From: Auanema rhodensis
Lineage: Eukaryota > Animalia > Nematoda
Assembly: GCA_964057225.1 (NCBI GenBank)
Contig: OZ059897.1
Location: 11,408,001 to 11,472,000 of the forward strand
Direction: 5' to 3'
Length of the DNA: 64,000 bases
How positions within the stretch are numbered: the stretch's first letter is position 1; every line of letters starts with the position of its first letter. A program made the translations under genes and the position numbers. The notes beneath the pieces are model-generated. The model saw only the letters and a list, made by a program, of their open reading frames with translations, searched no databases and was not told the origin of the DNA. Positions 9,193 through 63,366 of this stretch are shown one piece after another.

Positions 9193-9993
9193 TACATGTG
9201 TGGGTCAGCGCACCTGTTTTAACGATCTTATCGAATTAATCTTCGATATGTGTTCCATTGGAAACAACACAATTGTTTGTGAATCCTATCGAATTAACCT
9301 TCGATATGTGTTTTATTGAGTTAGTATATTAGAATATACTAATATAAAATTTAAAACAATTTCTTTAAACTATTCTTTCATGTAATTTGAAAATATTAGG
9401 CAACTTGGTACATGTGGTGTACAGCTATTTATCATATTTTAATGAACAAAACGTTTGCCATGTGGTTTTTGTGTGGGTCAGCGCACCTGTTTTAACGATC
9501 TTATCGAATTAACCTTCGATATGTGTTCCATTAACTTTTGTTTTTCACATCGTTCTTATCGAATTAACCTTTGATATGTGTTTCATTAACTTTTGTATTT
9601 CATATCGTTCTTATCGAATTAACCTTCGATATGTATTCCATTAACTTTTGTATTTCATATCGTTCTTATCGAATTAACCTTCGATATGAGTTCCATTGAT
9701 TTACCCATAAGAGGTACGGTGAACATATTAATTAGCTTTTATATATATTCAAATTTTATAAATTAAAACAAAAACAATATATATTAAAATGTTTATTCAA
9801 ATGTATAAATATTGAAAATACATTTAAAAGGAGATAATTTTAAAAATATATAAAAATACATTTAAAAAGAAATAATTAAATAATAATATTTAAAACATAT
9901 ATAAATAATAAAAATTCATTTAAAATACATTAAAAAATAATTTTAAAAAAGATTTTTAAAAAAAATCATGCATTTTGATCCATGCGCAGGCTC
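9193..9993 (+). repeat. Maverick subterminal/TIR sequence (type I) with 55-bp tandem repeats, outer end deleted; duplicate at 12601-13401
   Basis: Matches 38150-38666 and 44150-44670; inverted homolog at 15268-16220. Confidence 0.85.
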
Positions 9994-11859
9994 ATCTTGA
10001 GTATTCAAGACGCTTTTAGTAAATGGGGAACAACTTGCCCATTAATAACACAAACGGCTACTGAAATCACAAAAGCGTTTGTAATTAGATTTGTTTTCAT
10101 ATATGGACCACCAATGAGTATGATAACCGATAATGGTAGTAGCTTTTTGTCATCTGAATTTCAAGCTATGTGTAAACAATTTGGAATTAAACACACTACT
10201 ACGCTACCATATCATAAAAATGCTAATGGACAAGTTGAGAGACTTCATAGAACTTTGGAAGAAGCTCTCTCTTCATTCGTGAATGAACAACAAACTAACT
10301 GGGATATACACCTACCCAAAGTTATGTTTGTGATCAATACGTTACCAAACTCATCAACATCTATTAGTCCATATGTTGTATTATTTGGTCGGGATGCAAG
10401 ACTTCCTATTGACCATCAATTGCCTGGAAATAATCTTCAAACTGAAGAACCAGCCAATCCTACAGAAGATTTTGTCAATAGATCGCTAATACAAAATGAA
10501 AGCACATATAATATAGTAAAAGATAGAATTGAAACATGCAGCCACCCTGTCGGACTCGGACATCAGCGAGGACAACAAAGATCAGGAACAAGGATCACCA
10601 GAGCCACACCTTTTGTATGTCACACAACAACAAAGAAGAATGAACAACAGTACAATACACGAAATAGAACACAAAAAAAAGAAATTCAGGTTAATGACTT
10701 AGTTATGAAAAGTGAATTCTACTCGAAACAAACTAACATTATTTAGTTACAGCAGTTCAAAGATCTTTCGTCGTGGTTCAAATAGATAAAGGAAAAAGCA
10801 GAAGAGTACACAAGGACTTTGTCAAACCTTATCAACGGACAACATTTATTCCGGTTATCACGATTTCTTGCAGGTAGTTTTTTTTAACTAAATCAAACTG
10901 TTGAAATTTTTTTTTATTTTGTGCCATTTCTGATTGTAACACTTCTTTGTTGTTGATTGATTTTCTCTGAGAAGTCTGCTATTGTTTTACAAGGTTTTGT
11001 TTTATTACTCCAATTTTCATTGAGTAGATTTTTTTCAATATTCTCTTGTGAATCTTGCTATTTGTTATGCTTAATCATTACTTGTATTCACCTTATGGAC
11101 ATTAGTCATACGGGTCAAACGAGTTTTTATTTTTTTGTACAGAACGGGCTCGACCTATTCTCAGGGTAACACCGTACCTGTACAACTCAAGAAAATGAAC
11201 GACTATATCACAGTCGAATGGTTTAGAAGCAAAGCTCTCGTTTGCAAGCATTTCACTACTCAAGTGAATGGAATAGAATCTACTCGATACTACATTTCAA
11301 ATTCAACAAACTTGAAGAGACAATAGCTAAACTTTCAAATCGTATTGTATACATTTTTTTTATCCACTACACCATGATTTTTTTTCCAACATCCAACTAT
11401 CTTAAAAAGCGAATTAATTTATTTTGTTTTTGAACGAGGAAGTTCAACTTTTTAAGGTGGGGCGATGTCACATCGGCAAGCACATGGTAAACATGTGCGC
11501 GCTATTCAAATAGCGGGAGCCTGAACAAGCCCCGCCTACAACATGGGACACACATGACACTCTTGCTTCTGGCCTAACCCAGATAGGTTGTCTTATAGTC
11601 ATGTGAGTCTCATCTCTTTATCATCTATATATATCATCTATATATATCATCTATTTAATACTTTATTATATCTCTTTATATTCTTTCTTAATTTAATTCT
11701 TATATTGTACTTTCTTGTTATCTGATAATGAATCCTTTTCTCTTTAAGTATTTGTCTTAATAAGGAAATCGGGGCGTTCGGGTCTGCCTACCTAAGGAAC
11801 AAGGTAGAAGTACATATATCTTCCGACCATGAGAAGACGGGAAGAAACAATATGTAACG
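9994..11859 (+). mobile_element. 5'-truncated gypsy family 2 copy (integrase 3' half, 3' UTR, PPT, LTR 11466-11859); duplicate at 13402-15267
   Basis: Near-identical to 61507-63361; ITDNGS and VERLH integrase motifs. Confidence 0.93.
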
Positions 11860-14800
11860 CTTTTCCTCCCGAGGCAGGCTCTCGAGCCTGCGCATGGATC
11901 AAAATGCATGATTTTTTTAAAATCATTCTTAGGTCTTCTGCTTTCATTCTAGCAGTACAATAGTACTGTTTTAGTGGTAAAGATGGTAACACTTCGCCAT
12001 AATTTATTGGATGATTAAAGAGGTATGGGAATTGTCCTTAACTCATATCAGGTACACCAAATGCCTTGGGTAACGCTGATAAGGGTAAAGGCACTAGTAA
12101 ATAACTATCTTTAAAACATAAATGATTAATGTTTTGTCCTCTTAAAGGCTTGACAACCATGCTAATAATCTTGGTCCCATTTATAATGGGGTCAGGATAT
12201 ATTCCACGGTTTATCAGCTTAGACACCAAGAAATGTATGTCAAAGCGTGAACCATTATGCGCTATCAAAATTGCATTATCATTCTCAACAGAGTTGAGTA
12301 ACCAATCAAGGAAACGATCTGTTACAGATCATTCACTATCACCTTGTTGGTACCCAAAATGGCCCTCCTTGGTTGTGCATTTTTCACAGGAATTGGCATC
12401 TATACAACTTTCACAAAATTTGTTATACACAACCATTTTGGGCCATTGTTCATCTGCATATTCATGAACATTTGTGCCGTTTTTTAACACAAATGTTTCA
12501 AAGTCATAAAATATGAGCTTAAACAAGGAAGCATTACATTTGTAAAGATAACAACTACAAACCTTGAACTTTTCTTGCTTCTTTTTTAGCTGAGCCTTCT
12601 TACATGTGTGGGTCAGCGCACCTGTTTTAACGATCTTATCGAATTAATCTTCGATATGTGTTCCATTGGAAACAACACAATTGTTTGTGAATCCTATCGA
12701 ATTAACCTTCGATATGTGTTTTATTGAGTTAGTATATTAGAATATACTAATATAAAATTTAAAACAATTTCTTTAAACTATTCTTTCATGTAATTTGAAA
12801 ATATTAGGCAACTTGGTACATGTGGTGTACAGCTATTTATCATATTTTAATGAACAAAACGTTTGCCATGTGGTTTTTGTGTGGGTCAGCGCACCTGTTT
12901 TAACGATCTTATCGAATTAACCTTCGATATGTGTTCCATTAACTTTTGTTTTTCACATCGTTCTTATCGAATTAACCTTTGATATGTGTTTCATTAACTT
13001 TTGTATTTCATATCGTTCTTATCGAATTAACCTTCGATATGTATTCCATTAACTTTTGTATTTCATATCGTTCTTATCGAATTAACCTTCGATATGAGTT
13101 CCATTGATTTACCCATAAGAGGTACGGTGAACATATTAATTAGCTTTTATATATATTCAAATTTTATAAATTAAAACAAAAACAATATATATTAAAATGT
13201 TTATTCAAATGTATAAATATTGAAAATACATTTAAAAGGAGATAATTTTAAAAATATATAAAAATACATTTAAAAAGAAATAATTAAATAATAATATTTA
13301 AAACATATATAAATAATAAAAATTCATTTAAAATACATTAAAAAATAATTTTAAAAAAGATTTTTAAAAAAAATCATGCATTTTGATCCATGCGCAGGCT
13401 CATCTTGAGTATTCAAGACGCTTTTAGTAAATGGGGAACAACTTGCCCATTAATAACACAAACGGCTACTGAAATCACAAAAGCGTTTGTAATTAGATTT
13501 GTTTTCATATATGGACCACCAATGAGTATGATAACCGATAATGGTAGTAGCTTTTTGTCATCTGAATTTCAAGCTATGTGTAAACAATTTGGAATTAAAC
13601 ACACTACTACGCTACCATATCATAAAAATGCTAATGGACAAGTTGAGAGACTTCATAGAACTTTGGAAGAAGCTCTCTCTTCATTCGTGAATGAACAACA
13701 AACTAACTGGGATATACACCTACCCAAAGTTATGTTTGTGATCAATACGTTACCAAACTCATCAACATCTATTAGTCCATATGTTGTATTATTTGGTCGG
13801 GATGCAAGACTTCCTATTGACCATCAATTGCCTGGAAATAATCTTCAAACTGAAGAACCAGCCAATCCTACAGAAGATTTTGTCAATAGATCGCTAATAC
13901 AAAATGAAAGCACATATAATATAGTAAAAGATAGAATTGAAACATGCAGCCACCCTGTCGGACTCGGACATCAGCGAGGACAACAAAGATCAGGAACAAG
14001 GATCACCAGAGCCACACCTTTTGTATGTCACACAACAACAAAGAAGAATGAACAACAGTACAATACACGAAATAGAACACAAAAAAAAGAAATTCAGGTT
14101 AATGACTTAGTTATGAAAAGTGAATTCTACTCGAAACAAACTAACATTATTTAGTTACAGCAGTTCAAAGATCTTTCGTCGTGGTTCAAATAGATAAAGG
14201 AAAAAGCAGAAGAGTACACAAGGACTTTGTCAAACCTTATCAACGGACAACATTTATTCCGGTTATCACGATTTCTTGCAGGTAGTTTTTTTTAACTAAA
14301 TCAAACTGTTGAAATTTTTTTTTATTTTGTGCCATTTCTGATTGTAACACTTCTTTGTTGTTGATTGATTTTCTCTGAGAAGTCTGCTATTGTTTTACAA
14401 GGTTTTGTTTTATTACTCCAATTTTCATTGAGTAGATTTTTTTCAATATTCTCTTGTGAATCTTGCTATTTGTTATGCTTAATCATTACTTGTATTCACC
14501 TTATGGACATTAGTCATACGGGTCAAACGAGTTTTTATTTTTTTGTACAGAACGGGCTCGACCTATTCTCAGGGTAACACCGTACCTGTACAACTCAAGA
14601 AAATGAACGACTATATCACAGTCGAATGGTTTAGAAGCAAAGCTCTCGTTTGCAAGCATTTCACTACTCAAGTGAATGGAATAGAATCTACTCGATACTA
14701 CATTTCAAATTCAACAAACTTGAAGAGACAATAGCTAAACTTTCAAATCGTATTGTATACATTTTTTTTATCCACTACACCATGATTTTTTTTCCAACAT

Positions 14801-26100: not shown

Positions 26101-26733
26101 TATTTTGGCGAGCATTTATTACGATATAAAACAGCCAGCTTCATATACATCAGCCAAGATTTTATTATCGCAAGCACGAAAACATGGCATTTCAAAGGTA
26201 CAAGTTGATGATTTTTTGCAAGATTCTGAAACTTTTACACGGCATAAACCAACCAGAATGCGTATGCAGACTAGAAATGTAATATCCTTAAGTTGGATAT
26301 TAATATTCCATGATTGACCCTTAGATTGATGTGTTGTAAAAGAAACAATAAGATTTGAGGAAGAGAGAAAGATTTATTATAAATAAAAAACATTTAAACA
26401 ATAAACAAATAAAGATAAAGATAAGTCCGCCAACTGAAGATTCAGTTGAATGGCAAGCTTATATAGCGAATGTTATCAGCATTTTCCACGAAAGGTTATA
26501 AGTTGTCAATGACAATTATAACTATCTCGGAAAATGCTGAAGCTGCAAAATATAACTGATAACATAATACACTAAGACAAGAAACTAGAATTATAAAATA
26601 TAAAATATAAAACACAGAATAAAGAAATACATAAAAATTATAGAAAGAATAAAGTACATAATTATAAAGTATAACATGCTACCGCTCTTGAAGTCCTGTG
26701 TCCTCACAGGTATGCATAAGGTTTCCAAAATTT

Positions 26734-29700
26734 TCATAATGTTGCAGCAAGCTTTTTGATGAGATCCTTATGTACTTTTCTCATCTTTCCTTGACTCATT
26801 TCCAATTCCACATATGAGTTGTATACGCCTGTAATTTTGAACGGTCCATTATAGGTGGGTCGCAATTTGCCGTGAATCGTCATATCCTTCAATAGTACCA
26901 TTTCACCTATTTCAAATATACGTGATGCTATTCGGTTACTATTATTCAGCCGATTTTGTTGTTCAATTGATTTTAATTGAATTTTTTCTTGAATAGAATC
27001 CCAGGTATTTTTCCGGTTCTCATTTCTTTCCAATAATTCGTCATCTTCAGGAGAATTTAGATGAGGTTGTCCTGGTAATTGACGGTCCATAGGTAGGCGT
27101 GCGTCTCTTCCAAATAAAGCAATGTATGGGCTGATTCCGGTAGTTGTACTTGGGATTGTATTTAACGCGAATGTGATTTTAGGTAATTGTGAGGCCCATT
27201 GAGAGACACGGTTTTCAGCACAAGTGGATAAACATTCCTGGATGGTTCGATGTAGTCGTTCCACTTGACCGTTTGTATTTTTGTGATATGGCAGAGAGAA
27301 GGTTTGTACAATTCCAAATTCGTTGCACATTAACTTGAATTCTTTAGATATAAAATTTCCTCCATTGTCAGACACGATGCTCACTGGTGGTCCAAAAATG
27401 AAGACGAAATTCGTCAGGAACTTTCGGACTGTTTCTTCGGCATTCTGTGTGCGTAAAGGTATGCTCGTTATCCATTTCGAAAAAGCATCTTGAATAGAAA
27501 GAATATATTTAAATCCATTAGTGCTAGGGGAAAAAGGTCCTGTCACATCCATATGAATCCTATCAAATGGTTTTTGTGGGGTAACAAACTTTCCATATGG
27601 TTCTCTCGTTGTATCATGTTGATTTATTTTCCTTTTTGCGCATGTCAGGCATTGGCTGACGATCTCTTTCGCATCTTCCATCATATTTGTCCAATGGAAT
27701 CTTCTTGATAATGCTGCATGTGTTCTTTTGATTCCTTGATGCGCTCCAATTCTTGCGTCTTCATGAAAAAGTTTCGCAAGTACTTGATTCAATGTCTTTT
27801 GTTTTGGAATCATAATCCTTGGAGAAAGATATTGTTTGTTAGGTCGAGCATGTAAAACTCCGTCGATAACAATATATCTATCGCTATTAATCTGTTTAGG
27901 TTGTTCCGTTAACATATCAGCAATAGTTTCCTTAATCCATGGTGTTCCTTGTTGTAACTGAATTAGTTTGTCGGTATCCAGAGTTTCCACATTGGTTACA
28001 TTTATGAGATAGTTGATGGTTTCTTGGATATCCGTTAAACTTGTTGTTGGCGTTGTCTTCTGTAGCTTCGGTTTAGGACCATCGTTAGCTTCGTTGCCTA
28101 TGTATCTGGATAGTGCATCACATACACTATTCATACGTCCTGGACGGTACATAATCACAATATCATATTCCTGGATCATTAACTGATATTTCGCTAGTCT
28201 TCCAATAAGATCTCTTCTACTCATTAGACTGGTTAGTGGTCGATGATCCGTTATTAGCTTAGTTGACGTGCCTAAAACATATGTGCGAAATTGTTGTAAT
28301 GCGTAGACGAGTGCCAAAGCTTCTAATTCGATAGGTGGGTATTTTCTTTCTGTAGGTGAGAGCTTCCTACTTGCGAACGCAACAGGGTGTAATCCGTTTC
28401 CTGTATCTTGTAGTAAGACTGCTCCAATTGCAATAGTACTAGCGTCACTTTCAATAACAAAAGGTGCTCCATTTGTTGGTGGCTTCAGAACTGGTGCTGT
28501 GCATAGAGCTTTCTTGAGAGTCTCGAATGCTTTTTCACGTTCTTCCGTCCATTCGAAATCTTGATCCTTGTGTGTGAGTTGATACAACGGTTCGGCTATT
28601 TTGGCGTAGTCTCTGATGAATCGCCGAAAATAATTTGTCATTCCAAGGAATGAACGAATAGCGGTGACCGTTTTAGGAGTTGGAAATTTCATAACGGCTG
28701 TAATTTTTGATGGATCAGGTTGTATTCCATCACGACCAATTATAAATCCAAGAAATTTAACTTGTGTAGCTGCAAATTTGCATTTACTTAGTTTTGCTTT
28801 CATTCCTAATCCTTGTAAAGCTTGTAACACTTCTTCTATATCCTCCAGATGTTGTTCAGCTGTGTTTGATATAATGAGTAGATCATCCAGATAAACAAAA
28901 AGTCGACATTTTACTTGATTTTGCAAATAGCGAACAGCTGATTGAAATGTATGTGGAGCTCCACAGAGACCCATCGGCATTCTGCAATATTGATAAACTC
29001 CTGATGAGGTCACAAATGCAGTGAGGTGACGGTCTTCTTCACGTAAAGGAATTTGAAAAAATCCCGATACGAGATCGATGTTTGTGAAGTATCGAGCTCC
29101 TGCAGTGCTGTCGATTATTTCTGGTATATGAGGAATAGAATAAGTCTGTTTCTGTGTGACACTATTGAGTGCACGGAAGTCCGTTACAAAGCGGAATGAG
29201 TTGTCTTTCTTCTTGACTAAGACGACTGGACTTGTAAAACTTGATGTTGATGTTTCTATTACTCCTTGGTCCAGCATTTCTTTTACTTGACGTTCAACTT
29301 CATCCTGTTTACCCAAAGGAACTCGATATGATCGAGATTTGGGCAGGTCCATATCGGTTCTCAAAGTGATTGAATGTTCTATTGGTCCTTTGAATAATCC
29401 AATGTTCCGATCTTCGTTAAAAAAAGCATTTTTGAATCTTCTCAACATAGTTTTGAGATTTTGACGTTGATTTTTAGATAGATCCGTTGATTCGAATTTT
29501 AAGTTATCGAAAGGATTCTTCTCAAAAATAGGCAATTTATCTGACCAATCAGCTTCTGGTGGAATATAGTCCGGTATATGTGGGATTCCAATTTCTTCTG
29601 CTATTTTTCCTTTTCCAATAATGGTGTTTCCTGTTAACTTCACCTCATAATTTGCTGTATTGATGGCGAATATTGTGAGTGGTGAAGTCTTGATAGCAGT

Positions 29701-32700
29701 AGGTGTGAATTGAATAGGTCCATTTCCACATCGTATAAGAGCGTATTGTTTTGGTTGTAGTTCTTTTGCCAATTGTAGACGAATCATAGCTTTAGTTCGG
29801 GGTGGAATAATAGATTCTCTAATGTTTATAATTGAAACGGTGTCTGAACTGATGCGAAAGCTCTTCTGGTTAGCGGATAATAATGGTAGAAAATGGTTTC
29901 CAACTATTAATTGCTTGCGTAGAGCTTGTAGAGAAGTTGTTATTCCTTTTTCTTCTAATGCTTTCATGATGTCCAAACCAAGTAACATTTCAGTAGGACA
30001 ATGTTTATCCTCAGAGATTAAAAATGTGTGTGAAAGATGGTATCCAGCAATAACAATGTCCAACGTTATTGTACCCAGAAAGTTGAATATTGATCCATTT
30101 GCTGCGGTGGCAGAGATTTTAGTTGAGTTGAAATTCTCTTTTCCTAAATAGCGTACTGATGATTCCTTCAAATATGAAACAGATGCTCCGCTATCCCATA
30201 AAGCTACGAGTCCTCTGCCTTCTGCTTCGATTCTTATATATGGGAGTTCTCTTTTGTTTGTTGCACAGCATCCAACAAAAGGTATAATAATAGGAATAAA
30301 AGTGATGACAGTAGGAAAATATCTTCGAATAGTTTCATCGTCGGCTGGAACATCGATGTCAGCGTTGAGTAGTTCGTGTTGTTCAACTGCATTCACATTT
30401 AAGATAGGAACTTTCTCTTTGATATAAGATACAACAATAATGTATAATGCTGATCCAAAGATTAATATAACTATCATAACACCTGCAGAGATAAACATTC
30501 TGTTGAGGGATCCAGCAAAGAAATCAACTCCTCGTTCCCATAGTGATGATGCAATATTTTGAGTAGAACTAAAAAGTTCGTTACTTTTTGTAAACCATTC
30601 TGATAAGCCTGGCAAATTCGCTTGATTCGTGATAACTCGTAGAAAATTTCTATGAGGATTGGTAGCGAAAATGTGTCCATATGTTAAGCTTATTGTTCTA
30701 ACTAAGTTTTCATCGGTGATATTTTCATAAAGATTTCTTTGTGAAAATCGAATGGCTGCTAGATCGGGATACTGATCTGAACCAATGTTTAAAGCAGTTA
30801 CGTTTGTAACTCCGTTGAGGGATTTCCATTCTCCATCCTCTTTCCATATATCATTTTCTACTGTTTCACATGGAATTTCAGTTCCATATGCTTCCAAATC
30901 TGCTGAATCTTGAGGTGCAAAGTAGAGGCGGTCATCATCCGTGATGACGGGTGTTTCTAAATAACACTTATCCTTGTATGTGTGGTTGCGATAAATGTGA
31001 ATTGGTTCTATTGGCTGACAGGTTGAAACCCGAATAAGATTCCGTCCAATTATTCGAGCCACTACATCATCTCGTTGCATAATAGATCGGATAGCAATCG
31101 TAGGATTGATATTAAATATAGCTTGCCATGTCTTAATAAGTTCAAGTTGAGCATGACATATGCTGTGATGTTGATGATGAAATTCTTCGACCAGTATGGT
31201 TCTCATTCGTTCAAATCCATAGTTGAGTTTGTTGATGGTAGTTAATGCATCTCGATGTCGAAGTATAGTATTCTGGTGATCAGTTAAGTGAGTGCCGAAT
31301 AATTCTTGAGCTTTCTCTATGCTTCCAATCATGGGTTGCATTGATGTCATCCCTTGAATAGTACTAATTGTTTGTTTTGTAGTAGATGATGTATTTACAA
31401 CAGGTTTTGAGGTAGCACTAAGAAATCGTGCAGTTGGCGTAGTTTTAGTGGTGATAGAGCGACTGAATACTCTTTTTGTAATCTCTTCAGGTGCTGGTTT
31501 TGAAAACCATGACATTAAATCAGTTAATTGTTTAGCGTCAATATTGATGTTACGGCTGTAGAGATCTTCTTTATTCGAAGGCATCGGTATTCCAAAATTG
31601 GTTTCTCGGTTTCTGAGTGTCCAGTTATCCAACAGCTTTAATTTCATTTCATATACTTGATCTTTCACTTGTCGTTGCATAAAATGACTATGAAAGAACA
31701 GTTTCATTCGATAATATTCTATCAGTTGAGGTTGAGAATACTGATAGCGTAGTTCACGAAGTAATTCTTTTGCTTTATATACCACAGAACGTGGATCTCC
31801 AAATGTGAAGTTGAGATGGTTTTGATATACTGTGAATATCAAAAATTCGAGTGGTGGCACATATTCTGTTTCGGATAAGATTGCAGGTATTTGTATCAAT
31901 TCCCATAATTTATCTCTTGCAACCGAAATTGTAGAATTGCCTGGTTTAACTATTCTTTTTATATAATTGATAGGAAGTCGGTGTGCTAGTTGACCGATGA
32001 CAAAACTAGGCTCCATTTGTTCGATCCACATTTTTGTAATCATCTTGCTTTCTTCTCCTCCTAGAGCATGTAGTAAGAGAATATTCGGATCGCGGAAGTC
32101 TTTTAAATTTGCCCAGTAATCTATAGTATGATCAGTAATGTTCAAAACATGGACAGCTGACAGCAAAAATTGATGATATCGAGCAATAACAGTCAGGTTC
32201 TGATATTCGTTGCTAACTGATTGATAGTGATACCAGTTATGAATATATCGTATGGTATTTCCGCCAGACGTGACAGTATATCTAGCAAACGGTAGATCCA
32301 ATATTTGAATAGGAGTTAACTTATATTCCATTTCTGAGCGAAATGACGCAATTAAGGATGAATTTGTTGAACGTTTATAGCGTTGGCGTGAAGGATCCAT
32401 TTGATTATCCAAATAACTTGTTAGATCCAGTAGAGAATATGCATGCGGATAATCAATAAACGAGACAAGAGTCTCAGTAGTGGATTCAAAAATTGGTGAA
32501 GAAAAACAAGATTGAGTTGTAGTAGATGCTGAGGTGTTGGCTAAGACAAGTGCTGTTTCTAGACTTGATATTAGCAGTGTTTGATCTCCAAGTATTCCAT
32601 ACAGAGGTCCAATACGTGTGTATTGGCATGGTGCTCGGGGTGTGGGTGGTTTCCAAACTACTGAACCATCTCCAAATGTACAGCTTCCCATTTGAGCTTT

Positions 32701-34260
32701 ACAGCCTTCGGCGTTGACAATTAAGTCAGATACAATAGTATTGTCCTTTAAATTTGTAATAACTCCTCGCTCCATCACAAATTGAGTTAAGTTGGCGCAT
32801 TGAGTAAAACTGAAGAAACGTTCCGGTTCATATACTGGCTTAGGAGCTTCATATGTAAGTGGATTAGCGCTCAACAGTTTTTCATTTTTCCATTTCTTGT
32901 CTCGAGCAGCTATACGGCATTCTTCTACAGATACATATCCATTACCAATGATGGTGTCATTGCTTTCTCGGAACCAAAATTGATCCGTTACACATAATCG
33001 ATAGATGCGTGTATAACATTTCCACGCTTCCCATGTTACGACGGTTTGTTTAGGAATGAACAATTCAACGTTAACTTGATGAGCTTGTTGAATTGCTTTC
33101 CGTTGGCATCCTGTTATCTCTGGTGGTGTCATCAGAATTCCTCCTTTATGAGCTAAACATAGTTGATATGAAGCATTCACAGTGGGAAGCAGAAATGTGC
33201 AGATTATTGTTGTGAGCAGGAATGGTAATGCAATAGTATTTATATTGAATCGAGGTTTCCATCGTCGTTGATTGCCTTGATTCTCTCTTGGATAATTGTC
33301 GCGATTATTCCTGGCAAAGTTGTCTCGATTTTCTCTTTGATAATTGTTGCGAGGTTCTCTCGAATGGTGATTACTCTCCATTGAGTAGTTGTTTCCATAA
33401 TTTTGTCGAGGGCCAGAGTTCCTGCTGAATTTATTTTTGAAATTCTTCCAAGGGTTTCTTGAATTGTTGCCATTGTTCCGTTCGAAATCTCGTGGCTGCT
33501 GATGGTTCCTTTGGTTCCTATTTTCCTTCATGGTGATCTTCTGAACTGCAGAGATCAACTCTTGCATAGTTGAGTTTTCTTCATGCTGTTTTTTATAGTT
33601 AGCACGAATTGCTTCTTCAAAACGTGCTGTCCTTTTTGCTTCCTCATAAGTCTTCGGATCTTTTCCTTGAACAATTATGCCTAAATCAGCGTTCAATCCA
33701 TTTAAGAAAGCTGATCTTAATATGAGCTCTCTTTCTCGATCAGTTGGGCTCATAATACTGGAAGCCATTTCTTCCAAGTATGAGGCAAACTGAGTAACAG
33801 TTTTCTCTCCTTGCGTCGAGCGTAGCAACTTCGCGATCGTGAAATTCCTTTCCGTGGCAGGGCAAAGTAACTCTGCCAATTGTGAAACAAGGTCTTTCCA
33901 AGGTCCTCGTTCACGAATTTCGAAAGGAATCGAGTTATATGCAGAGATCGCAGAATCATTCTGCTGAAGCAGCAGAGGAAGAAGAAAAATTCTTTCAATT
34001 ACAGAAAGTCCCGCAGCATTCGCGAATCGGTTAAATATATCGATGTACGATCGAAAGCTTCGGCTACCATCGTATTTGGGGCAGTGTGGACTGCCTAGAA
34101 CTTTTGTTAAGTTTTTGGTCAACTCTGGAGATGCCATTAAATTAGGCGTTTCCAGAGTTGAATCTCTGTTTGATTGCTCATGTGGTCTCATGTTGAGTAG
34201 GAGCTTCAGAGGTAGTTTTTCGCGCTGGGGAGTTTTTTCTTTTTTCGGTGTTACAGCCAA
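26734..34260 (-). CDS. Intact Gag-Env-PR-RT-RNaseH-IN polyprotein (2508 aa)
   Basis: Gag CA-like PKYDG...FLNGL; signal-like FLLTTIICTFLLPTVNA; furin RYKR; TM at about 30421-30498; LWDSGA; YLDD; RNase H ESDAS/ELEA/TDH/DALSR; HHCC, DDE and GPF. Confidence 0.95.
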   Translation of the reverse strand: MAVTPKKEKTPQREKLPLKLLLNMRPHEQSNRDSTLETPNLMASPELTKNLTKVLGSPHCPKYDGSRSFRSYIDIFNRFANAAGLSVIERIFLLPLLLQQNDSAISAYNSIPFEIRERGPWKDLVSQLAELLCPATERNFTIAKLLRSTQGEKTVTQFASYLEEMASSIMSPTDRERELILRSAFLNGLNADLGIIVQGKDPKTYEEAKRTARFEEAIRANYKKQHEENSTMQELISAVQKITMKENRNQRNHQQPRDFERNNGNNSRNPWKNFKNKFSRNSGPRQNYGNNYSMESNHHSREPRNNYQRENRDNFARNNRDNYPRENQGNQRRWKPRFNINTIALPFLLTTIICTFLLPTVNASYQLCLAHKGGILMTPPEITGCQRKAIQQAHQVNVELFIPKQTVVTWEAWKCYTRIYRLCVTDQFWFRESNDTIIGNGYVSVEECRIAARDKKWKNEKLLSANPLTYEAPKPVYEPERFFSFTQCANLTQFVMERGVITNLKDNTIVSDLIVNAEGCKAQMGSCTFGDGSVVWKPPTPRAPCQYTRIGPLYGILGDQTLLISSLETALVLANTSASTTTQSCFSSPIFESTTETLVSFIDYPHAYSLLDLTSYLDNQMDPSRQRYKRSTNSSLIASFRSEMEYKLTPIQILDLPFARYTVTSGGNTIRYIHNWYHYQSVSNEYQNLTVIARYHQFLLSAVHVLNITDHTIDYWANLKDFRDPNILLLHALGGEESKMITKMWIEQMEPSFVIGQLAHRLPINYIKRIVKPGNSTISVARDKLWELIQIPAILSETEYVPPLEFLIFTVYQNHLNFTFGDPRSVVYKAKELLRELRYQYSQPQLIEYYRMKLFFHSHFMQRQVKDQVYEMKLKLLDNWTLRNRETNFGIPMPSNKEDLYSRNINIDAKQLTDLMSWFSKPAPEEITKRVFSRSITTKTTPTARFLSATSKPVVNTSSTTKQTISTIQGMTSMQPMIGSIEKAQELFGTHLTDHQNTILRHRDALTTINKLNYGFERMRTILVEEFHHQHHSICHAQLELIKTWQAIFNINPTIAIRSIMQRDDVVARIIGRNLIRVSTCQPIEPIHIYRNHTYKDKCYLETPVITDDDRLYFAPQDSADLEAYGTEIPCETVENDIWKEDGEWKSLNGVTNVTALNIGSDQYPDLAAIRFSQRNLYENITDENLVRTISLTYGHIFATNPHRNFLRVITNQANLPGLSEWFTKSNELFSSTQNIASSLWERGVDFFAGSLNRMFISAGVMIVILIFGSALYIIVVSYIKEKVPILNVNAVEQHELLNADIDVPADDETIRRYFPTVITFIPIIIPFVGCCATNKRELPYIRIEAEGRGLVALWDSGASVSYLKESSVRYLGKENFNSTKISATAANGSIFNFLGTITLDIVIAGYHLSHTFLISEDKHCPTEMLLGLDIMKALEEKGITTSLQALRKQLIVGNHFLPLLSANQKSFRISSDTVSIINIRESIIPPRTKAMIRLQLAKELQPKQYALIRCGNGPIQFTPTAIKTSPLTIFAINTANYEVKLTGNTIIGKGKIAEEIGIPHIPDYIPPEADWSDKLPIFEKNPFDNLKFESTDLSKNQRQNLKTMLRRFKNAFFNEDRNIGLFKGPIEHSITLRTDMDLPKSRSYRVPLGKQDEVERQVKEMLDQGVIETSTSSFTSPVVLVKKKDNSFRFVTDFRALNSVTQKQTYSIPHIPEIIDSTAGARYFTNIDLVSGFFQIPLREEDRHLTAFVTSSGVYQYCRMPMGLCGAPHTFQSAVRYLQNQVKCRLFVYLDDLLIISNTAEQHLEDIEEVLQALQGLGMKAKLSKCKFAATQVKFLGFIIGRDGIQPDPSKITAVMKFPTPKTVTAIRSFLGMTNYFRRFIRDYAKIAEPLYQLTHKDQDFEWTEEREKAFETLKKALCTAPVLKPPTNGAPFVIESDASTIAIGAVLLQDTGNGLHPVAFASRKLSPTERKYPPIELEALALVYALQQFRTYVLGTSTKLITDHRPLTSLMSRRDLIGRLAKYQLMIQEYDIVIMYRPGRMNSVCDALSRYIGNEANDGPKPKLQKTTPTTSLTDIQETINYLINVTNVETLDTDKLIQLQQGTPWIKETIADMLTEQPKQINSDRYIVIDGVLHARPNKQYLSPRIMIPKQKTLNQVLAKLFHEDARIGAHQGIKRTHAALSRRFHWTNMMEDAKEIVSQCLTCAKRKINQHDTTREPYGKFVTPQKPFDRIHMDVTGPFSPSTNGFKYILSIQDAFSKWITSIPLRTQNAEETVRKFLTNFVFIFGPPVSIVSDNGGNFISKEFKLMCNEFGIVQTFSLPYHKNTNGQVERLHRTIQECLSTCAENRVSQWASQLPKITFALNTIPSTTTGISPYIALFGRDARLPMDRQLPGQPHLNSPEDDELLERNENRKNTWDSIQEKIQLKSIEQQNRLNNSNRIASRIFEIGEMVLLKDMTIHGKLRPTYNGPFKITGVYNSYVELEMSQGKMRKVHKDLIKKLAATL
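30421..33240 (-). other. Env region of family 1: class III (gB-like) fusion glycoprotein
   Basis: LNYGF..ICHAQ..WQAIFNINP..VVARIIG..VSTCQPI..CYLETP..EIPC parallels herpesvirus gB LQFTY..WCELQ..WNEARKLNP..VSARMLG..VSTCVPV..CYSRP..IEPC (gB sequence recalled from memory). Confidence 0.78.
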
Positions 34261-35609
34261 GTGTGTTGGCGTTTTTTCGTCGTCCGATGGACTTAAATCG
34301 TTGTCAAACGAGTCGTCACTATCGGGAAAAGGAAATCGAGAAATACGATTTCTCTTGTCTCTTAATCTTTGAGAGGTACGGAAAGGCGTATCCGTATAAT
34401 TATTCTTGGAGGTTGCCGTTTTGGAAAAGGAGGAAAGTCAGAACAATCTACAATGTAAAATAGTGGAATAAGTTAGTAAACAAGATAAGAATATGAATAG
34501 TTAATAGTGAATAAATTAGTGAATAACGTGAAAAAAAAAATCGAAGAAAAAAAAAAGATATATAATAATATGGGTTGAAGATTAATTAATTAATGAACTC
34601 ATACAAAAACAAACTATAGAGAGGAAAAAAAAAAAAGTGAATATAATTAATTGTTAAGATGATGATAGGATATGATTATGTGACAATGTGATTCATAAAT
34701 TAGAGAAGTGAGTATGGCGGACAAATCAAAATCTCAATTGTTACTGAATAACAATGAATTACCAAACAAGGCATCTTTCAAATTCCAAAGTCTTTGTTTC
34801 AACTTGAATCAACAATCAAAAAATTATGAGAGGAAGGTTTAAATTCAAATATGACAAATGATACAGCGGATGTTATTTTCTTACAGTGGCCATTCTGTTA
34901 GTACAAACTTGTAATCTTTATCAAAAATATCGCAAATTGACTTTATTAAGGTCCAATTTTGCTTATATCAAACAGCTTTTCCATTTCCAAAAAATATATA
35001 TTTTTCGCCACAATGAAAAATCAAAAGTACAACTGCGCAGAAACAAAAAGAAATCGAAAAGTTGGCCAATTCAGTATCTCACCCTTGCGCAAAATATCAA
35101 CCCTGTTTATTAAAAAAATGAGTGAGACCCTTCGTACTGAATTGGAAAGAGAGGTGGTAGCCCAGGGAAATAGCTCAAAAAAAGATTTATTATAAATAAA
35201 AAGCATTTAAACAATAAACAAATAAAGATAAAGATAAGTCCGCCAACTGAAGATTCAGTTGAATGGCAAGCTTATATAGCGAATGTTATCAGCATTTTCC
35301 ACGAAAGGTTATAAGTTGTCAATGACAATTATAACTATCTCAGAAAATGCTGAGGCTGCAAAATATAACTGATAACATAATACACTAAGACAAGAAACTA
35401 GAATTATAAAATATAAAATATAAAACACAGAATAAAGAAATACATAAAAATTATAGAAAGAATAAAGTAAAGAATTATAAAGTATTGCAAACATACAAAC
35501 ATAAGTTTTTTGTACGGGCAGCTGTCATTTGGTCAAACGTGGTCAGAAGAGTTTCATCGTTGTTACCATGAATCTGATAAAGAGTTTCAAGAGCAGTATC
35601 ATGAAATTC

Positions 35610-36840
35610 CATTGGGCCATTGTTCATCTGCATATTCATGAACATTTGTACCGTTTTTTAACACAACCGTTTCAAAGTCATAGAATATAATCTTAAACAA
35701 GTAAGCATTACACTTGTAAAGATGTAAAATACAAACCTTGTATTTTTCTTGCCTCTTTTTTAACTGATCCTTCTTCTTGTCGTTAGGTGGTACCCAACAA
35801 CAAGAATGATCTTCAGGCTTTGTCTGACCACACTTTTTGCAAAATTTCTCATTGCAATTGTGCGGTCTATCTGCACGCACCCTGTGATAATGATCACAGT
35901 TTTCACATGTCTGAATTTAGTCTTGTAAAATTTTATATATATTTTTTAAATTACCTTAAACATTCGACATGTTTTTCTAATATGCCTGTCGAAGCATTGA
36001 CGAGTTTTAAACAAAACTCTACAACTATCACATCTTATGCTACTTTCAACCACATTTTCCATCGAATTACAATTTAAGGTGTGGCATTTCTTACACTTGG
36101 CTTTACATCTATGCAACACTGTTTTGTAAGATAATTTACAGTGTTGGCATATAATACCATCAAAAAGCTGTGATCTACTACAAGTAGTAATACAGTCATA
36201 ATGATTATTTCGGTAGCCTAGTGTTACCACTTTGCTAGCCGTTTCATTAAAGATACGCTGAATAGCGTACATACGCTGTCCAGGTGGCCTAGCGTATACT
36301 ACAAACTTATAGTCTGTACTACAACTTGCAATAATATTTAAATGGTTTAAATTATAATTTGGTAAATGTACAGAAATACCACACCTATTTAATAAATTGA
36401 TATGATGTGGTTGATTTGGCAACAAGATGTAGTTGCGACGAAGATTTTGTATCCTCCGCTTTTCAACAACATCTTCTGCTGCCTCTTCATCGGCTTTCCA
36501 CATTCCCACAACTGCTGCTCTAGCCAGGCAATGAGTGTCAGTGTTCTCAATTGTGCCAGGTATTTTGAGTTCGGCATCAAAATAGAAACCAACTCTACCT
36601 TCACCAGGCATCAGGCTTGGCTGCACTGGTCTCTCATCAAACACATACATTTCAATATTCATTGCCTGGCTAATTACAGCCTCTCGCTTTGATTGCTGCA
36701 CCTTGCTGATGGCATTCATGATGGCAACGCCATCCAAATGCTCCCTTCTACGGAAATCCATAAATATGGATCCCTTTTCAAAGGATGGGTGCTCTATTGA
36801 TAAACAAAATAGCACTTTTTGTTTATCTGGCACACCACTC
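35610..36840 (-). pseudogene. pPolB N-terminal fragment (B-type), introns retained
   Basis: Near-identical to 18280-19430. Confidence 0.88.
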
Positions 36841-38833
36841 CATAAAAATGCGGCCCATTGATGTTAAAGCAAATATATTCATTGAAGAATATGCACCAGC
36901 TGTTAAAAGCCGCTTTAAAATTGGTGATACTGTTCGCATAAGTAAAAATAGGCGTACTTTTGAAAAAAGCTACGAGTCTGGATATACAATGGAGCTGTTC
37001 ACAATTGATGAGGTTGTAACCGGAAACCCAACCGTGTATAAACTTGTAGATTATAATGGTGAACGTATAAAGGGAATATTCTACGAACCTGAACTTGTCT
37101 TGGCTACTAATAAAAGCAACCAGTACTATATAGAAAAAGTTTTAAAAGAGCGTACACGAAATGGTAAACGCCAAGTATTTGTAAAATGGAGTGGCTATCC
37201 CGACAACTTTAATGAATGGATAGATGCAGAAAATTTAAATGTATATTTTTTCACTGTTGTTGTAAACAATTGTATTAATAATAAATGATTTATTTGATCA
37301 ATCGTTCATATTGTAACAATAAAAAACCAGCAAAACATAAAAGCCAAGACAATGATATAACCTATAATTATAAACTGATTAATATTTAAATTTTTAATGC
37401 TTACCAGTTGGTTAGAGAGTCGGCTGTTGATGGATAATTTCAAACTTCAAGAGCTGGAAAAAAATGTTACGGCTAAGAAAATTTAAATATAACATAACAA
37501 AATCAACCAACTGTCCATTAAACAGTTTGTGCTTGTTGTAGTCAAAACGATGGATCAAAACGGATAAGCATATTCAAGTTGAGCGCCTGTTGACTTAATT
37601 TAAAGTAGAACACATTCTGCTTATAACCAAAAGACTTGACAGTTGACTCATCAGTATAGATGGCAATGTAACTCATATTATTCAACAATTGTTTTGATGA
37701 CATGCTAGAGTAGGAACGCATCTGTAAAAGAAAAAATAATAATTAGAATTAATAATTTTATAATCTTACATTGATTGTTGAATTGATCGCAGGATTGTTG
37801 CGAAAAACAGACTTGTACACATCCGATTACAAGTACAACATTTCCAGACACTTTGTAGAATAGAAACTCTTACAAAATGTTAACACATGTTCTAATTTTA
37901 AATAAAAATTCATTGTTCAATAAATATATTACGAAACATTTATTCTATTCTTGAACATAGTTATGAAATACATTAGCTATCAGAACATTTATAAACTATT
38001 AGGGCTACAACGACAATTACTTTAAAGTAACATTTTTGATGTTAAAAAGTTTGAAAATATTCGTATATACTCATGACCCCTTGGCATAGTAAGTATTCTT
38101 TAGCGTTATGGGTACATGTGGTGTACAGCTATTTATCATATTTTTATGAACACAACTTTTGCCATGTGGTACATGTGTAGTGCACCTGTTTTAACGATCT
38201 TATCGAATTAACCTTCGATACGTGTTTCATTAAATTTAGTTTAAATATTTAGAACTTCTTATCGAATTGACCTTCGATATGAGTTCCATTGATTAACCCA
38301 TATGAGGTACGGTGAACATATTGATTACCTTTTAAAAATGTTTTTAAATAAATAAAAAACAATATATATGAGAAATAATTTATTCAGTTTTAAAGATACA
38401 ATTAAAAAATATATAAATATTAAAATACATTTAAAAATAAATATTATTAAAAATATATTTAAAAAGAAATAATTAAATAATAATATTTACAAATACAATT
38501 TACAAATATATAAATAATAAAAATTCATTTAAAAAGAAATAATTTTGAAAATATTTACAAATACAACTAACAAATATATAAATAATAAAAATTCATTTAA
38601 AAATACATTAAAAAATGATTTTAAAAAAGATTTAAAATCATGCATTTTGATCCATGCGCAGGCTCGAGAGCCTGCCTCGGGAGGAAAAGTATATTTTTGA
38701 CAGCTGACGCCGAAAATATGATTTTAACAGTTGACGCCCCCAAAAGTATGATTTTAGCAGCTGACGCCCTCAAAAGTATGTTTTTAGCAACTGTTTGGGG
38801 GCGTGGTTAGTAAATTCGGCATGGCTCTCTACT
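36841..38833 (+). mobile_element. Maverick right-end fragment: integrase C-terminus/chromodomain, partial cargo gene, TIR type I ending CTCTCTACT
   Basis: Homologous to 42402-44810. Confidence 0.88.
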
Positions 38834-38906
38834 AACGTAACTGTTTCACCAATCTTATCGAATTAACCTTCAATGTGTGCTCTATAGAGTTATTGTATTG
38901 TTATAT

Positions 38907-39305
38907 TGTAATATCCTTAAGTTGGATATTAATATTCCATGATTGACCCTTAGATTGATGTGTTGTAAAAGAAACAATAAGATTTGAGGAAGAGAGAAAG
39001 ATTTATTATAAATAAAAAACATTTAAACAATAAACAAATAAAGATAAAGATAAGTCCGCCAACTGAAGATTCAGTTGAATGGCAAGCTTATATAGCGAAT
39101 GTTATCAGCATTTTCCACGAAAGGTTATAAGTTGTCAATGACAATTATAACTATCTCGGAAAATGCTGAAGCTGCAAAATATAACTGATAACATAATACA
39201 CTAAGACAAGAAACTAGAATTATAAAATATAAAATATAAAACACAGAATAAAGAAATACATAAAAATTATAGAAAGAATAAAGTACATAATTATAAAGTA
39301 TAACA
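38907..39305 (-). repeat. Gypsy family 1 LTR (399 bp)
   Basis: Appears identical to 26278-26676; followed by GAAA, matching the GAAA before 26278. Confidence 0.95.
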
Positions 39306-53481: not shown

Positions 53482-53902
53482 GAAATTTGTCATTAATAAC
53501 CTGCTACATTACGTGGCCAGTTGTCACATCTGCTAGCACATGGTAAACATGTGCGCGCTATTCAAATAGCGGGAGCCTGAACAAGCCCCGCCTACAACAT
53601 GGGACACACATGGCACTCTTGCTTCTGGCCTAACCCAGATAGGTTGTCTTATAGTCATGTGAGTCTCATCTCTATATCATCTATATATATACTCTATTTA
53701 ATACTTTATTAGATCTCTCTATATTCTTTCTTAATGTAATTCTTATATTGTATTTTCTTGTTATCTGATAATGAATTCTTTTCTCGTTAAGTATTTGTCT
53801 TAATAAGGAAATCGAAGCGCTCGGGTCTGCCTACCTAAGGAACAAGGTAGAAGTACATATATCTTCCGACCATGAAAAGACGGGAAGAAACAATATGTAA
53901 CG

Positions 53903-53915
53903 TGGAGGTTCCACC
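53903..53915 (+). promoter_or_regulatory. Primer-binding site, probably tRNA-Gln
   Basis: TGGAGGTTCCACC is complementary to the metazoan tRNA-Gln(CUG) 3' end GGUGGAACCUCCA. Confidence 0.8.
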
Positions 53916-55055
53916 TTGCTTACTCTACTGTTAATTTATTGACAGCAAGTTTACGAGACTTTTGGACTTAATTACCCAACAGTGAGGAGTAACCGAGCCG
54001 TGCACCATGATTTCCCCAAAAATTATTTTGGCTACCACTTCTCCTCCGCTCAACAAAAACTGGGAGGTGTCTGAGACGTTTGGGGAAACTATCAGACAAT
54101 AGTTTTGACGAGCGTTACCTTTTTGTTATGCACGCGCGTGCTATTTTGATTCATTACTTTATGATGTGAATGTCCAGTGTGGCAACAGAGCTCACTTTTT
54201 AGCTGAGTTGTTTGGAAGCTGGAGGCTGTTGGGATAATTTTATTTACGATTTTTTGATTTTGATTCACATCCAAGGGTTCATCAGGGTTCTACTCCTGTT
54301 AACTCTTTTCTTATTAGTTCAGAGATAATAAGAATATTTGAATTCCTACCCACCCAAGTCCACTCTACGTCTGCCAACGTTTCCTTTTTCCTATATTATT
54401 GACAGATTACTGAATTTAAATTCCTATATCAATCTTAAATTACCTTCTATATCTTTTGAAATTAAATTAAAAATTATCTTAATTAAGATTTATTTTGAAA
54501 TTCTTTCTACAAATCTTAATAAACTTTATAAAATTGAACTTAATATACGAGATGAGACATTTTTGTTTACTTTAAGCTTACTCACATTCAAATAGTTGAC
54601 CCACGCGTACCAGCTGTTCGACATGTGTAGTCAATAACAGCTGTTAAAATTCAAAAGTTTTCAAACAGGCTTAAGGCACCATCTGTGATTCCTTATTTGT
54701 CTCTAAGCTGACATTAGTGATTATAATATTCAAATATCACGACAGACGGTCAATGGTTGTTTACCATAAGCGCTAACATCTGGTGTCGTGACACATGGCT
54801 GGAGGCGGAGCTTGAAGCTTCAACGATCCTCCTTCATCAGACGCCATTGTCACAAACGTTTTTACTGGAGTCTAGTTGCTTCCAGTACGCGCTCTTATAT
54901 TCATCTAACTGTATTCACCAGCCACCCTGTCGGACTCGGACATCAGCAAGGAAAACAAAGATCAGGAACAAGGATCACCAGAGGTACGCCAAGTTTTTGA
55001 ATTTAATTCTAAAAACTTAAATACTCCATCCACCTACCTCTCTCCTTTTGAATTT

Positions 55056-58000
55056 TTGAGAGAAGAAGGTGATTCCTCTTCTTCTTCTCACTCTTCTTCT
55101 CTAACAATTAGAACGAGAAGTAAAAGCAGAAAGGCCATCACTGAGGAAACACCTCGGGCACCTACTACAGTACGAAATAGATCACCAAGTCGGTGGGCCG
55201 CTGCTATAACTAAAGCTTTTGAAAGAAAAATGACTCCTACCTCTCCATCTCCTAATTCTAATGTTGCTCCACCCTCTAGAAATATGGCAACTATTTTGAA
55301 TTGCCATCTCTGTCCCAGGTATGAAGGCTCTCGTAGCTTTCGTTCTTTTGTTGAATCTTTAAATAGATTTTTTAATGTTATGAATCTAAGCTTACCTGAG
55401 AGACTATTAATTTTGCCTCTTCTTTTGGAATCAAATGAAACAGCTCTCTCCTTGTATAATAGTATTCCTAGTGGCATAAGAACTAATGGCCCATGGATTG
55501 TTTTGATGGATCAGCTCACTGAGCTTTTAGCGCCTAAAACAGATAAAAATTTCACCATAGCGCTTATTCATCGAGTACAACAAGGAGATAAATCTGTTCT
55601 TGATTTTAGTATGGAATTAGAGAGAATGGCAAGCACCATAATGTCACCAACGGATCCCGAGCGGGAACCAATGTTGAAAACGGCATTTTTAAATGGTTTA
55701 AAAGAGGAACTGGATATTGCGGTTTTAACTAAAAACCCCGCCACTTATGAACAAGCTAAGAAATTAGCTAGGTTTGAAGAAGGCGTTCGAAATAGCTTCA
55801 TGAAAAGAAATGAAGACACCAGCACCTTGAAGGAGCTCATAAATGCTTTACAGCATAAATTAAGCTTTAGTGAAGAAAGAGAAAGAAGTAGGAAAAATAA
55901 TAATAATAAAAATTATAAAAATAATAAAAATAATAAAAAAAATAATAACTGGACTCAGCACAATAATGGCTCTAATGATTATGAGCGAGAGAGAGAGCGA
56001 CCTTCTGCCGTACGTTATAATAATAATAACTCGCAGAACGGGAATATGAATAGGCGTCCTAACCCGGGAAACCGCCCATTTGCGAATGGCAGAAATGCCA
56101 ATAGCTCGTCTTGGAACCCTAGGCCAAGTTCCCCAAGAAGACAAAGACCATCAGCCAATGGGAATGGTAACTCAAGGGTATACAGCGTAGCGACCCCATT
56201 CATGCCACCGGTCACGTTGTGCCTGACTTTATTGGCACTCTCATGCCTTCCCTTTGGGTCGGCAAAATATCAGATTTGCGCTCAATCTGAAGGGGGTATA
56301 TTAGTAACACCTCCTGTGGTCACAGGCTGCCATAAGGCAGAAATTGAAAAGGCTCACAGTGTTGAGGTAGAAATATATCTACCAAAGGCTGAGATAGAGT
56401 CATGGGAAGCATGGAAATGCTATGTGAAAAAGTATAAAAGCTGTGTGAGAGATTTCATGTTTTTGAGAGATCGTAACACCACATTCTCTCATATTAAAAC
56501 AGTAGATAAGAAAGATTGTGTTCGAGCACATAGAAATCGTATGTGGAATGATAAAATCATGAATGCCCAACAGCATTCAGTTTTTGAAACACCATTAAAC
56601 GAGCATAATCCAACTCGCTCTTGGTCCACTGAAGAATGTAGAAATTGAACAATTTGTATTGAAGCGAGGGAGAAATTGAACAATTTGGAGAAATGGAGAA
56701 ATTGAACAATTTGTATTGAAGCGAGGGATAATAACTAGATTGAAAGAAGATCACATTGTATCAGACTTATTTATAAATACTGATAATTGTAAAGGAAATG
56801 AAGGGTTTTGTGCAACTGGTGAAGGTGCAGTTATCTGGCAACCACCTATCCCATTAGTTGTCTGTCACTATCAAAAACTTGGCCCCTTCTCCGCCATGTT
56901 GGATAATCATATTCTTCTAGTTCACTCTATTGAAAGCGCTTTTGTTCTCCAAAATCATTCCACATCCGCTCACGTTCAATCTTGTTTCGAATTCGCTGTT
57001 TTTGAATCATCTTCTGAGGCAATTATCCAATTCACAGCATATCCCCGTGTTTATAATTTGCTTGATCTTTCCAATACTTTGCTTAATGCTGATAGACGCA
57101 GAAATAAACGTAATGCATTACCTCAAAAACATCGCTCTTTCAGTGATGATTATCTTTTTGTTAATGCGAAATCCCAACCATATGCGTTTCCATTTCTAAG
57201 ACCTACTTTCATTTTTGGATCTGCATCTATCACTAAGTTTTACGCAAAATATATGAGATATGCAGCTACATCATCTTATGAGAGTTTGCTCCAATTCGCG
57301 ATAGATAATCCACTGTTCATTGACACAATTGTTAGTTTAGGATTGACAAAAGATCATATAACTAACTGGGCGAAGTCTAATAATTTCAAAGATCCCAATC
57401 TTTTGATTTTACAATGTATGGGTATAGAGGAAATTAAACTGGCTACTAGACAGATGATTAACAGCATGAAATTGGATGATCTTATCACTCAAGTAGCTCG
57501 TCGTATAGAAGTTCCTCGGTTAAAAAGATCGTTGAGGAAATCTACAACATCCATAGAAGACTTCTTTCGAGGAATGGCTCACGCAGTAGTATATCAAGCC
57601 ACAATTCTTGATGGTACACAAACAGTTCCATCAATCGAACAGTTGGCCAGAGCCTTATATCCATCTATATTACCACGCAGTGGAAATATGAATCAATCTG
57701 AAATTATTGCAACTGCTCAAGGCATGTTATTCATGATCCAACAACAATCGGGAAAAGAACAAATATCTCGTGACATGCAAGTCAGTCGACAACAAAAAGC
57801 TGATGCTACTGTTAGAAACAACCAAGAGCAAGATTTAGCAATTATATCCAAGCTGCCTGACTATCACAACCTTTATACAAAGAATAGTACAGCATATTAT
57901 GGATTTCCTCCACAGTCCATCGAATACCCACAGGAAAATTCTAAATTCAATAAAACAGAAGTTTTAGAATTTATAAGTTGGGTTAAAACTCAAATTACAA

Positions 58001-62980: not shown

Positions 62981-63366
62981 TGTCACATCTGCTAGCACAT
63001 GGTAAACATGTGCGCGCTATTCAAATAGCGGGAGCCTGAACAAGCCCCGCCTACAACATGGGACACACATGGCACTCTTGCTTCTGGCCTAACCCAGATA
63101 GGTTGTCTTATAGTCATGTGAGTCTCATCTCTATATCATCTATATATATACTCTATTTAATACTTTATTAGATCTCTCTATATTCTTTCTTAATGTAATT
63201 CTTATATTGTATTTTCTTGTTATCTGATAATGAATTCTTTTCTCGTTAAGTATTTGTCTTAATAAGGAAATCGAAGCGTTCGGGTCTGCCTACCTAAGGA
63301 ACAAGGTAGAAGTACATATATCTTCCGACCATGAAAAGACGGGAAGAAACAATATGTAACGCAGTT

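Follow-up and report, generated by a model that had tools for sequence, protein, structure and literature searches.

Can an envelope be translated in frame between the gag and pol parts of a Ty3/gypsy element? Two such arrangements, here called elements 1 and 2, occur in the 64,000-nucleotide stretch of Auanema rhodensis DNA that we analysed (the window). Are these layouts real? Does the envelope have the fold of a fusogen? How might one precursor be threaded through a membrane and then cut? Is the genome plan new?

Element 1 occupies a reverse-strand frame free of stops for 2567 codons, stop to stop, with these features:

26734..34437 (-), single Gag-Env-PR-RT-RH-IN frame (ORF scan, Pfam, hydropathy)
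33244..34191 (-), Gag, with a capsid-like domain and an Arg/Asn-rich tail (weak PF03732 match; 53% identical to element 2 Gag)
33232..33243 (-), INTI, where the protease is predicted to cut between Gag and signal (inferred from motif enrichment)
33172..33234 (-), internal signal or signal-anchor, ending ..TVNA and followed by SYQLC (hydropathy; junction survey of relatives)
30499..33171 (-), predicted gB-type class III fusogen ectodomain, aa 423-1313 (PDB profile match; AF2 model; VIA)
32371..32382 (-), furin-type site RYKR (sequence; 13 of 22 relatives carry R-x-[KR]-R in the same linker)
31318..32370 (-), fast-evolving insert of ~350 aa after the furin site, mostly helical with a Thr-rich end (identity comparison; model pLDDT 45.6)
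30427..30498 (-), Env transmembrane (TM) helix (hydropathy, insertion scale)
30253..30426 (-), tail, predicted to be cytosolic, and linker that leads to PR; VNAV at 30385-30396 is a predicted protease site (topology prediction, motif enrichment)
29938..30252 (-), aspartic protease, DSG (Pfam)
28558..29340 (-), reverse transcriptase, YLDD (Pfam)
28138..28557 (-), RNase H (Pfam)
26737..27840 (-), integrase, HHCC and DDE core (Pfam)

The protein runs Gag, signal, ectodomain with RYKR, TM, tail, PR, RT, RH and IN. In Pfam terms Retrotrans_gag (PF03732) is matched weakly at residues 177-249 (E 0.038), Monjiviricetes_fusion (PF24664, a class III fusion family) above the cut-off at 1051-1208 (E 1e-11) and gB below the cut-off at 1068-1148; the pol domains follow at 1403-1492 (PR), 1741-1900 (RT), 1963-2091 (RH) and 2215-2385 (IN), and their catalytic motifs are readable in the translation. 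No zinc knuckle was seen in Gag. Hydropathy places a signal-like segment at aa 402-420 and the TM at aa 1318-1336, and the ectodomain carries 14 cysteines, with the RYKR at 686. An earlier note on this DNA had claimed one uninterrupted Gag-Env-PR-RT-RH-IN ORF, and for element 1 this is borne out by the stop-free frame and the Pfam order. The start that it gave, at 34260 for a protein of 2508 aa, is not: that codon, number 60 of the frame, is TTG, and the first ATG lies at 34191, which yields 2485 aa. Upstream of the likely Gag start both elements have an open Ser/Arg/Pro-rich frame (34192-34437 and 54909-55283), for which a non-AUG start or a spliced leader is possible. Within the integrase region a contig of one run, which can only be guessed to be RNA, leaves out two segments bounded by GT..AG on the + strand (27138-27182 and 27299-27346, 43 and 46 nt), antisense to the gene; this is possibly a spliced antisense transcript.

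Element 2 lies on the forward strand:

53522..53902 (+), 5' LTR, 381 bp, TSD CAGT (1 difference from the 3' LTR)
53903..53914 (+), tRNA-Gln primer-binding site (sequence beside the 5' LTR)
54909..56648 (+), Gag, signal (56199-56264) and start of Env (ORF, Pfam)
56680..62259 (+), remaining Env (RNKR 57100-57111, TM 58924-58989, PTAP 59041-59052), PR, RT and IN (ORF, Pfam)
62981..63361 (+), 3' LTR, with a polypurine tract just before it (LTR comparison)
9993..11860 (+), partial copy of the element 2 3' end (IN and LTR), duplicated at 13401-15268 (97.9% identical)

Between 54909 and 62259 the domain order, signal, matching cysteines, RNKR and TM are as in element 1. A short tandem duplication at 56640-56728 splits the frame, RNase H is missing and the end of IN is rearranged. 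The claim of a second family with the same layout therefore stands for order, cysteines, signal, furin site and TM, and falls for a single intact ORF. Identity between the two elements is 77% in RT, 53% in Gag, 40-45% in the env core and 22% in the post-furin insert, and such sequence comparison indicates that element 2 is a sister family of element 1, without an independent origin. The partial copies of element 2 are held in a 3408-bp tandem duplication at 8522-15339, 99.97% identical, which is either a recent duplication or an assembly artefact.

The nature of the envelope was approached through its relatives. A word-based homology search with the env region gave no matches, though HMMER later found 222 relatives among 1.84 billion representatives, of which the best 150 were listed; a single-sequence search of the PDB also returned 0 matches. 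A profile of 88 rows, comprising the window ectodomain and 87 of the 150 listed relatives, chosen mostly by env coverage and a length below ~1700 aa, matched herpes gB among PDB sequences with E 4e-14, and rabies-type G was also matched. The AlphaFold (AF2) model of the ectodomain has a mean pLDDT of 69, with 294 of 891 residues below 50. Every PDB row listed by Foldseek for this model is gB, at low TM-scores of ~0.17, and the best alignment by VIA is to prefusion EBV gB (Z 13.7, rmsd 5.3, 366 residues). The top viral matches in BFVD are mononegaviral-type glycoproteins, including that of Nyavirus midwayense. Together the profile match, the gB rows and the VIA alignment support the prediction of a gB-type class III fusogen, as the earlier note had proposed for the env region. 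The insert of ~350 aa is poorly modelled (pLDDT 45.6), and a profile search restricted to proteins of 1155-3295 aa, which weighs little as evidence, found no relatives of it.

Where does this envelope sit in other proteins? Domain probes divided the 150 listed env matches, with the window proteins subtracted, into 14 gag-env-pol, 33 env-before-pol, 13 gag-env, 1 pol-before-env and 89 env only, so that among these matches env precedes pol within one protein in 47 and follows it in 1. In 123 further proteins env comes first in all 30 that bear it. The closest RTs, 60-61% identical, are from Auanema, Caenorhabditis and Diploscapter, and the named top env matches are also from nematodes. In an RT tree the two elements are sisters (97), nested within a clade of 14 rows, all env-bearing and drawn from Caenorhabditis, Auanema and Diploscapter (SH-aLRT 100). 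The tree is a quick version with no bootstrap, built from 84 RTs of database proteins without named reference elements (all env-bearing rows with a full RT, the named rows and about a quarter of the other unnamed rows). Env matches, nearest RTs and RT clade all agree with the proposal of a nematode retroelement lineage, and they point to a rhabditid nematode as the likely host.

The Ty3/gypsy features are largely present. Element 1 has the PR-RT-RH-IN order, of which element 2 has lost RH; both have LTRs and a TSD (399 bp with GAAA, 381 bp with CAGT), and element 2 has a tRNA-Gln site at its 5' LTR. For element 1 a small number of patterns was tried, and none revealed a primer-binding site next to either of its two upstream LTRs. 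As for a GAG-ENV-POL element of gB type, env lies between gag and pol, the gB-type ectodomain lies between a signal/TM and a TM, and RT groups with nematode env-bearing elements, as judged against database proteins. Belpaoviridae (Atlas, Tas, Cer13), marked by a YVDN motif and a C-terminal env, were considered and rejected, the window having YLDD, env upstream of PR and gypsy-type nearest RTs. The same env family also occurs at the C-terminus of other long proteins (P0033, P0070, P0077, P0078, P0143 and P0147), which are probably of BEL/Pao type; two genome plans would then use related fusogens.

The surroundings of element 1 are more complicated than its coding region:

26278..26676 (-), 3' LTR, 399 bp (0 differences from 38907-39305)
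35181..35485 (-), internal partial LTR, 98.4% identical, without the last ~94 nt
35486..38906 (strand not assigned), 3.4 kb of Maverick/Polinton-like DNA enclosed by the outer LTRs
38907..39305 (-), outer 5' LTR, with a 4-bp TSD GAAA (26274-26277, 39306-39309), in a Maverick integrase gene

Thus 26278-39305 has three LTR copies, an identical outer pair with its TSD enclosing both the Maverick DNA and the truncated inner LTR. Such a layout is hard to obtain by normal reverse transcription, and recombination or assembly may be the explanation. In three sequencing runs a continuation as expected of an empty site is seen as a loose end at 26277. Both insertions look young. Throughout the window (1-64000) the background is made up of Maverick/Polinton copies, nested and decayed, with pPolB, an adenoviral-type protease and a chromodomain-bearing integrase; Tc1-like transposases lie at 1776-2525 and 44815-45840. 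Both LTR elements sit inserted in Maverick DNA, and no gB-like gene was found in the Maverick DNA around them.

How such a protein might cross a membrane was addressed with hydropathy and an insertion scale. At 31 of 36 junctions between Gag and Env, the residues immediately preceding the first cysteine of Env include a hydrophobic core. For the other end of Env, 29 of 32 env-to-PR linkers were kept, two being dropped for want of a detectable catalytic motif and one for want of a TM. None of the 29 tails has a second insertable helix (no insertion sum below +1), and Pol is therefore predicted to be cytosolic. A third TM before PR was considered for element 1 at aa 1374-1392 and rejected, as this stretch is only weakly hydrophobic (KD 2.08, insertion sum +3.7) and not conserved. 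The two-pass topology put forward earlier, with Pol back in the cytosol, is thus upheld as a prediction.

The motif [VI][NH]x[VIL] marks both flanks of Env. Upstream of the signal, within ~45 aa of it, 18 of 31 cases have the motif (shuffles: mean 1.7, maximum 7), as do 22 of the 29 tails (shuffles: mean 5.0, maximum 11); its density is 1.2-1.7 per 100 aa on the cytosolic sides versus 0.17 in ectodomains. The RH-IN linker is enriched as well (11/18, shuffle mean 2.8) and the region after PR weakly (12/33), with no enrichment in the RT and IN cores (6/21 and 5/17). A second set, from which 7 of 29 linkers were dropped, gave 9 of 12 before the signal (shuffle mean 0.8) and 18 of 22 in tails (3.4), with no excess in ectodomains. 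Three caveats apply: the choice of motif followed inspection of the first set, close relatives of that set are present in the second, and the shuffles take no account of kinship. The Ty1 protease is reported to cut VPTIN*NVHTS, favouring Val or Ile at P2 and P2' (PMC6952103). The simplest reading of the motif is that the element's protease frees Gag from the signal anchor and Pol from the Env tail at these predicted sites. Separately, the late-domain-like motif P[TS]AP is enriched in Env tails of both sets (5/29 and 5/22, shuffle mean 0.1); element 2 has it at 59041-59052 and element 1 lacks it. PPxY and YPxL show no enrichment in the tails.

We consider it probable that both are LTR-flanked Ty3/gypsy elements of a published group, with a predicted gB-type fusogen in frame between Gag and Pol, likely made as one membrane-threaded precursor that is cut afterwards. 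Domain order, LTRs and TSDs, fold match and RT placement are observed results, and the following mechanism is our inference. Gag would be made in the cytosol, the internal signal would thread Env into the ER, and the single TM would stop transfer such that PR-RT-RH-IN is again made in the cytosol. On the lumenal side Env would be cut by signal peptidase and furin. The element's own protease would act at [VI][NH]x[VIL] immediately upstream of the signal and within the tail of Env, so that Gag and Pol, once assembled at a membrane, would lose their anchors in it. The resulting particles would hold Gag, Env and Pol in the 1:1:1 ratio of the precursor and might use putative class III fusion to enter neighbouring cells, which would probably be germ cells.

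Of fourteen sequencing runs, 13 contain part of the stretch and none is recorded as RNA; comparison of the contigs of four of these runs with 26000-38300 bears on alternatives to this scheme. The contigs match the coding region at ~99.8%, and so the frame of element 1 is no assembly artefact. They also reveal a shortened form:

27065..33319 (-), ends of a natural 6253-nt deletion in other copies, absent from this copy (joint in 4/4 runs)

The deletion removes env and pol. What is left of Gag ends with codon 373, short of the signal, and after two further codons comes a stop. Contig depth at the joint 27065/33319 is 46, 170, 94 and 2.9 in the four runs against ~60, 140, 46 and 0 over env, bearing in mind that depth differs from copy number. 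That the joint reflects a spliced RNA was considered and rejected, since no shift brings it to GT-AG on the element's strand; with 6 nt of microhomology it resembles the usual product of template switching. There is thus, as DNA, a relative that lacks env and pol and encodes Gag without an anchor, most likely a parasitic template-switch deletion; it might act as a Gag helper or restrictor.

Might the action of Env be confined to the host, say as a membrane anchor or in short-range cell-to-cell spread, with no infectious particle and with copies spreading as intracellular retrotransposons? We hold this to be possible, if on the unlikely side. The mechanism of transmission is described as unknown for most such elements, that is, outside Drosophila (PMC13524379), and the env-less form reaches contig depths like or above those of the env region, which implies that env in cis is not needed to multiply. 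Against this, the cysteine pattern, furin site and gB fold are retained between sister families at 40-45% identity and across the 222 relatives.

The single ORF may also not be the sole product. If spliced or truncated RNAs, or gag-only copies, supplied most Gag, the full precursor would be a minor species. A 1:1:1 precursor yields no excess of Gag, the gag-only form with its stop just before the signal is present in 4/4 runs, and depth over gag exceeds that over env (85/297/145 against ~60/140/46); depth, however, differs from copy number, the RNA nature of the fourth run is a guess, and a microhomology joint that is not GT-AG resembles an ordinary template-switch deletion. We judge this reading unlikely. 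A two-part system, in which the full element makes only a tethered Gag-Env-Pol precursor, its protease freeing Gag and Pol at conserved sites on either side of Env (the Env tail of some families carrying PT/SAP budding motifs), whilst an amplified gag-only family supplies the free Gag lacking in the 1:1:1 design or restricts the element as a dominant-negative capsid, would be a rather improbable elaboration. That a viral glycoprotein gene landed in the coding region by chance, as a nested insertion, or that this region is a chimera of the assembly, can be dismissed: the tangle of nested Mavericks and LTR elements and the odd three-LTR layout invite the idea, but individual contigs, 3.0-3.3 kb long, span the Gag/Env junction (in one run) or the stretch from the linker on the PR side through pol (in two runs) at ~99.8% identity, and the order is common to dozens of relatives.

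The earlier note had taken the gag-env-pol plan to be new, and this has to be given up, as it is already catalogued for Nematoda, Bryozoa and Platyhelminthes, an outcome named beforehand as refuting the claim. Chary and Hayashi (eLife 2026, PMC13524379) describe nematode, bryozoan and flatworm elements as having only gB-type ENV, arranged GAG-ENV-POL, with ectodomains between two TM segments, and credit the flipped env/pol order of nematodes to Sacco et al. 2022. Their supplementary catalogue has 36 nematode elements, 8 of them labelled tRNA-Gln, and the 12-mer primer-binding site of element 2 is identical to that of Clat_errantivirus_4 and Ctro_errantivirus_1 (PMC13524379 Suppl. 1).

Both elements of the window are probably members of this published nematode GAG-ENV-POL group. 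The layout is real but known and, with the genome plan already in print, the window shows no new kind of element. Sacco et al. 2022 reportedly describe, under the name NERV, a continuous gag-env-pro-pol ORF with a nyamivirus-like env. What the window adds is modest, namely candidate cut sites on both sides of Env and a gag-only deleted form. In the main text of PMC13524379 no mention of a polyprotein, budding, a late domain or non-autonomous forms was found; protease sites and a gag-only form were likewise not found in that text or by literature searches on NERVs and gypsy-envelope late domains, and Sacco et al. 2022 or the figures and other supplements of PMC13524379 may cover them. The window gives a testable processing map for a widespread group, with likely cut points and the membrane side of each part. 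The natural gag-only form bears on how the Gag:Env:Pol ratio is set in a single-ORF enveloped element.

Compared with known systems, the envelope has its fold in common with herpesvirus gB and mononegaviral G (the Z of 13.7 is to prefusion EBV gB) at 8-15% identity, and differs in its ~350-aa post-furin insert and in being embedded in a retroelement polyprotein. TR-GAG elements of plants are non-autonomous LTR elements that keep Gag only, as does the deletion form; here the host is an animal and the source element enveloped, and LTRs were not seen on one contig with the joint. Atlas virus and the nematode belpaoviruses (PMC9094657) are nematode elements that likewise hold an envelope within a single polyprotein but, unlike the window, have a BEL/Pao pol and a C-terminal Env of class II, phlebovirus-like fold. 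The non-canonical nematode endogenous retroviruses of Sacco et al. 2022 (J Gen Virol, PMID 35550022), as cited in PMC13524379, share the flipped env/pol order. Closest are the nematode 'ancient errantiviruses' described in PMC13524379 (among them Clat_errantivirus_4, Ctro_errantivirus_1, Crem_errantivirus_1/2 and Cnig_errantivirus_3), which, as described, have a Ty3/gypsy pol, a gB-type env between gag and pol, an ectodomain between two hydrophobic segments, LTRs of similar size and a tRNA-Gln primer-binding site, and come from the host genera of the nearest relatives found here.
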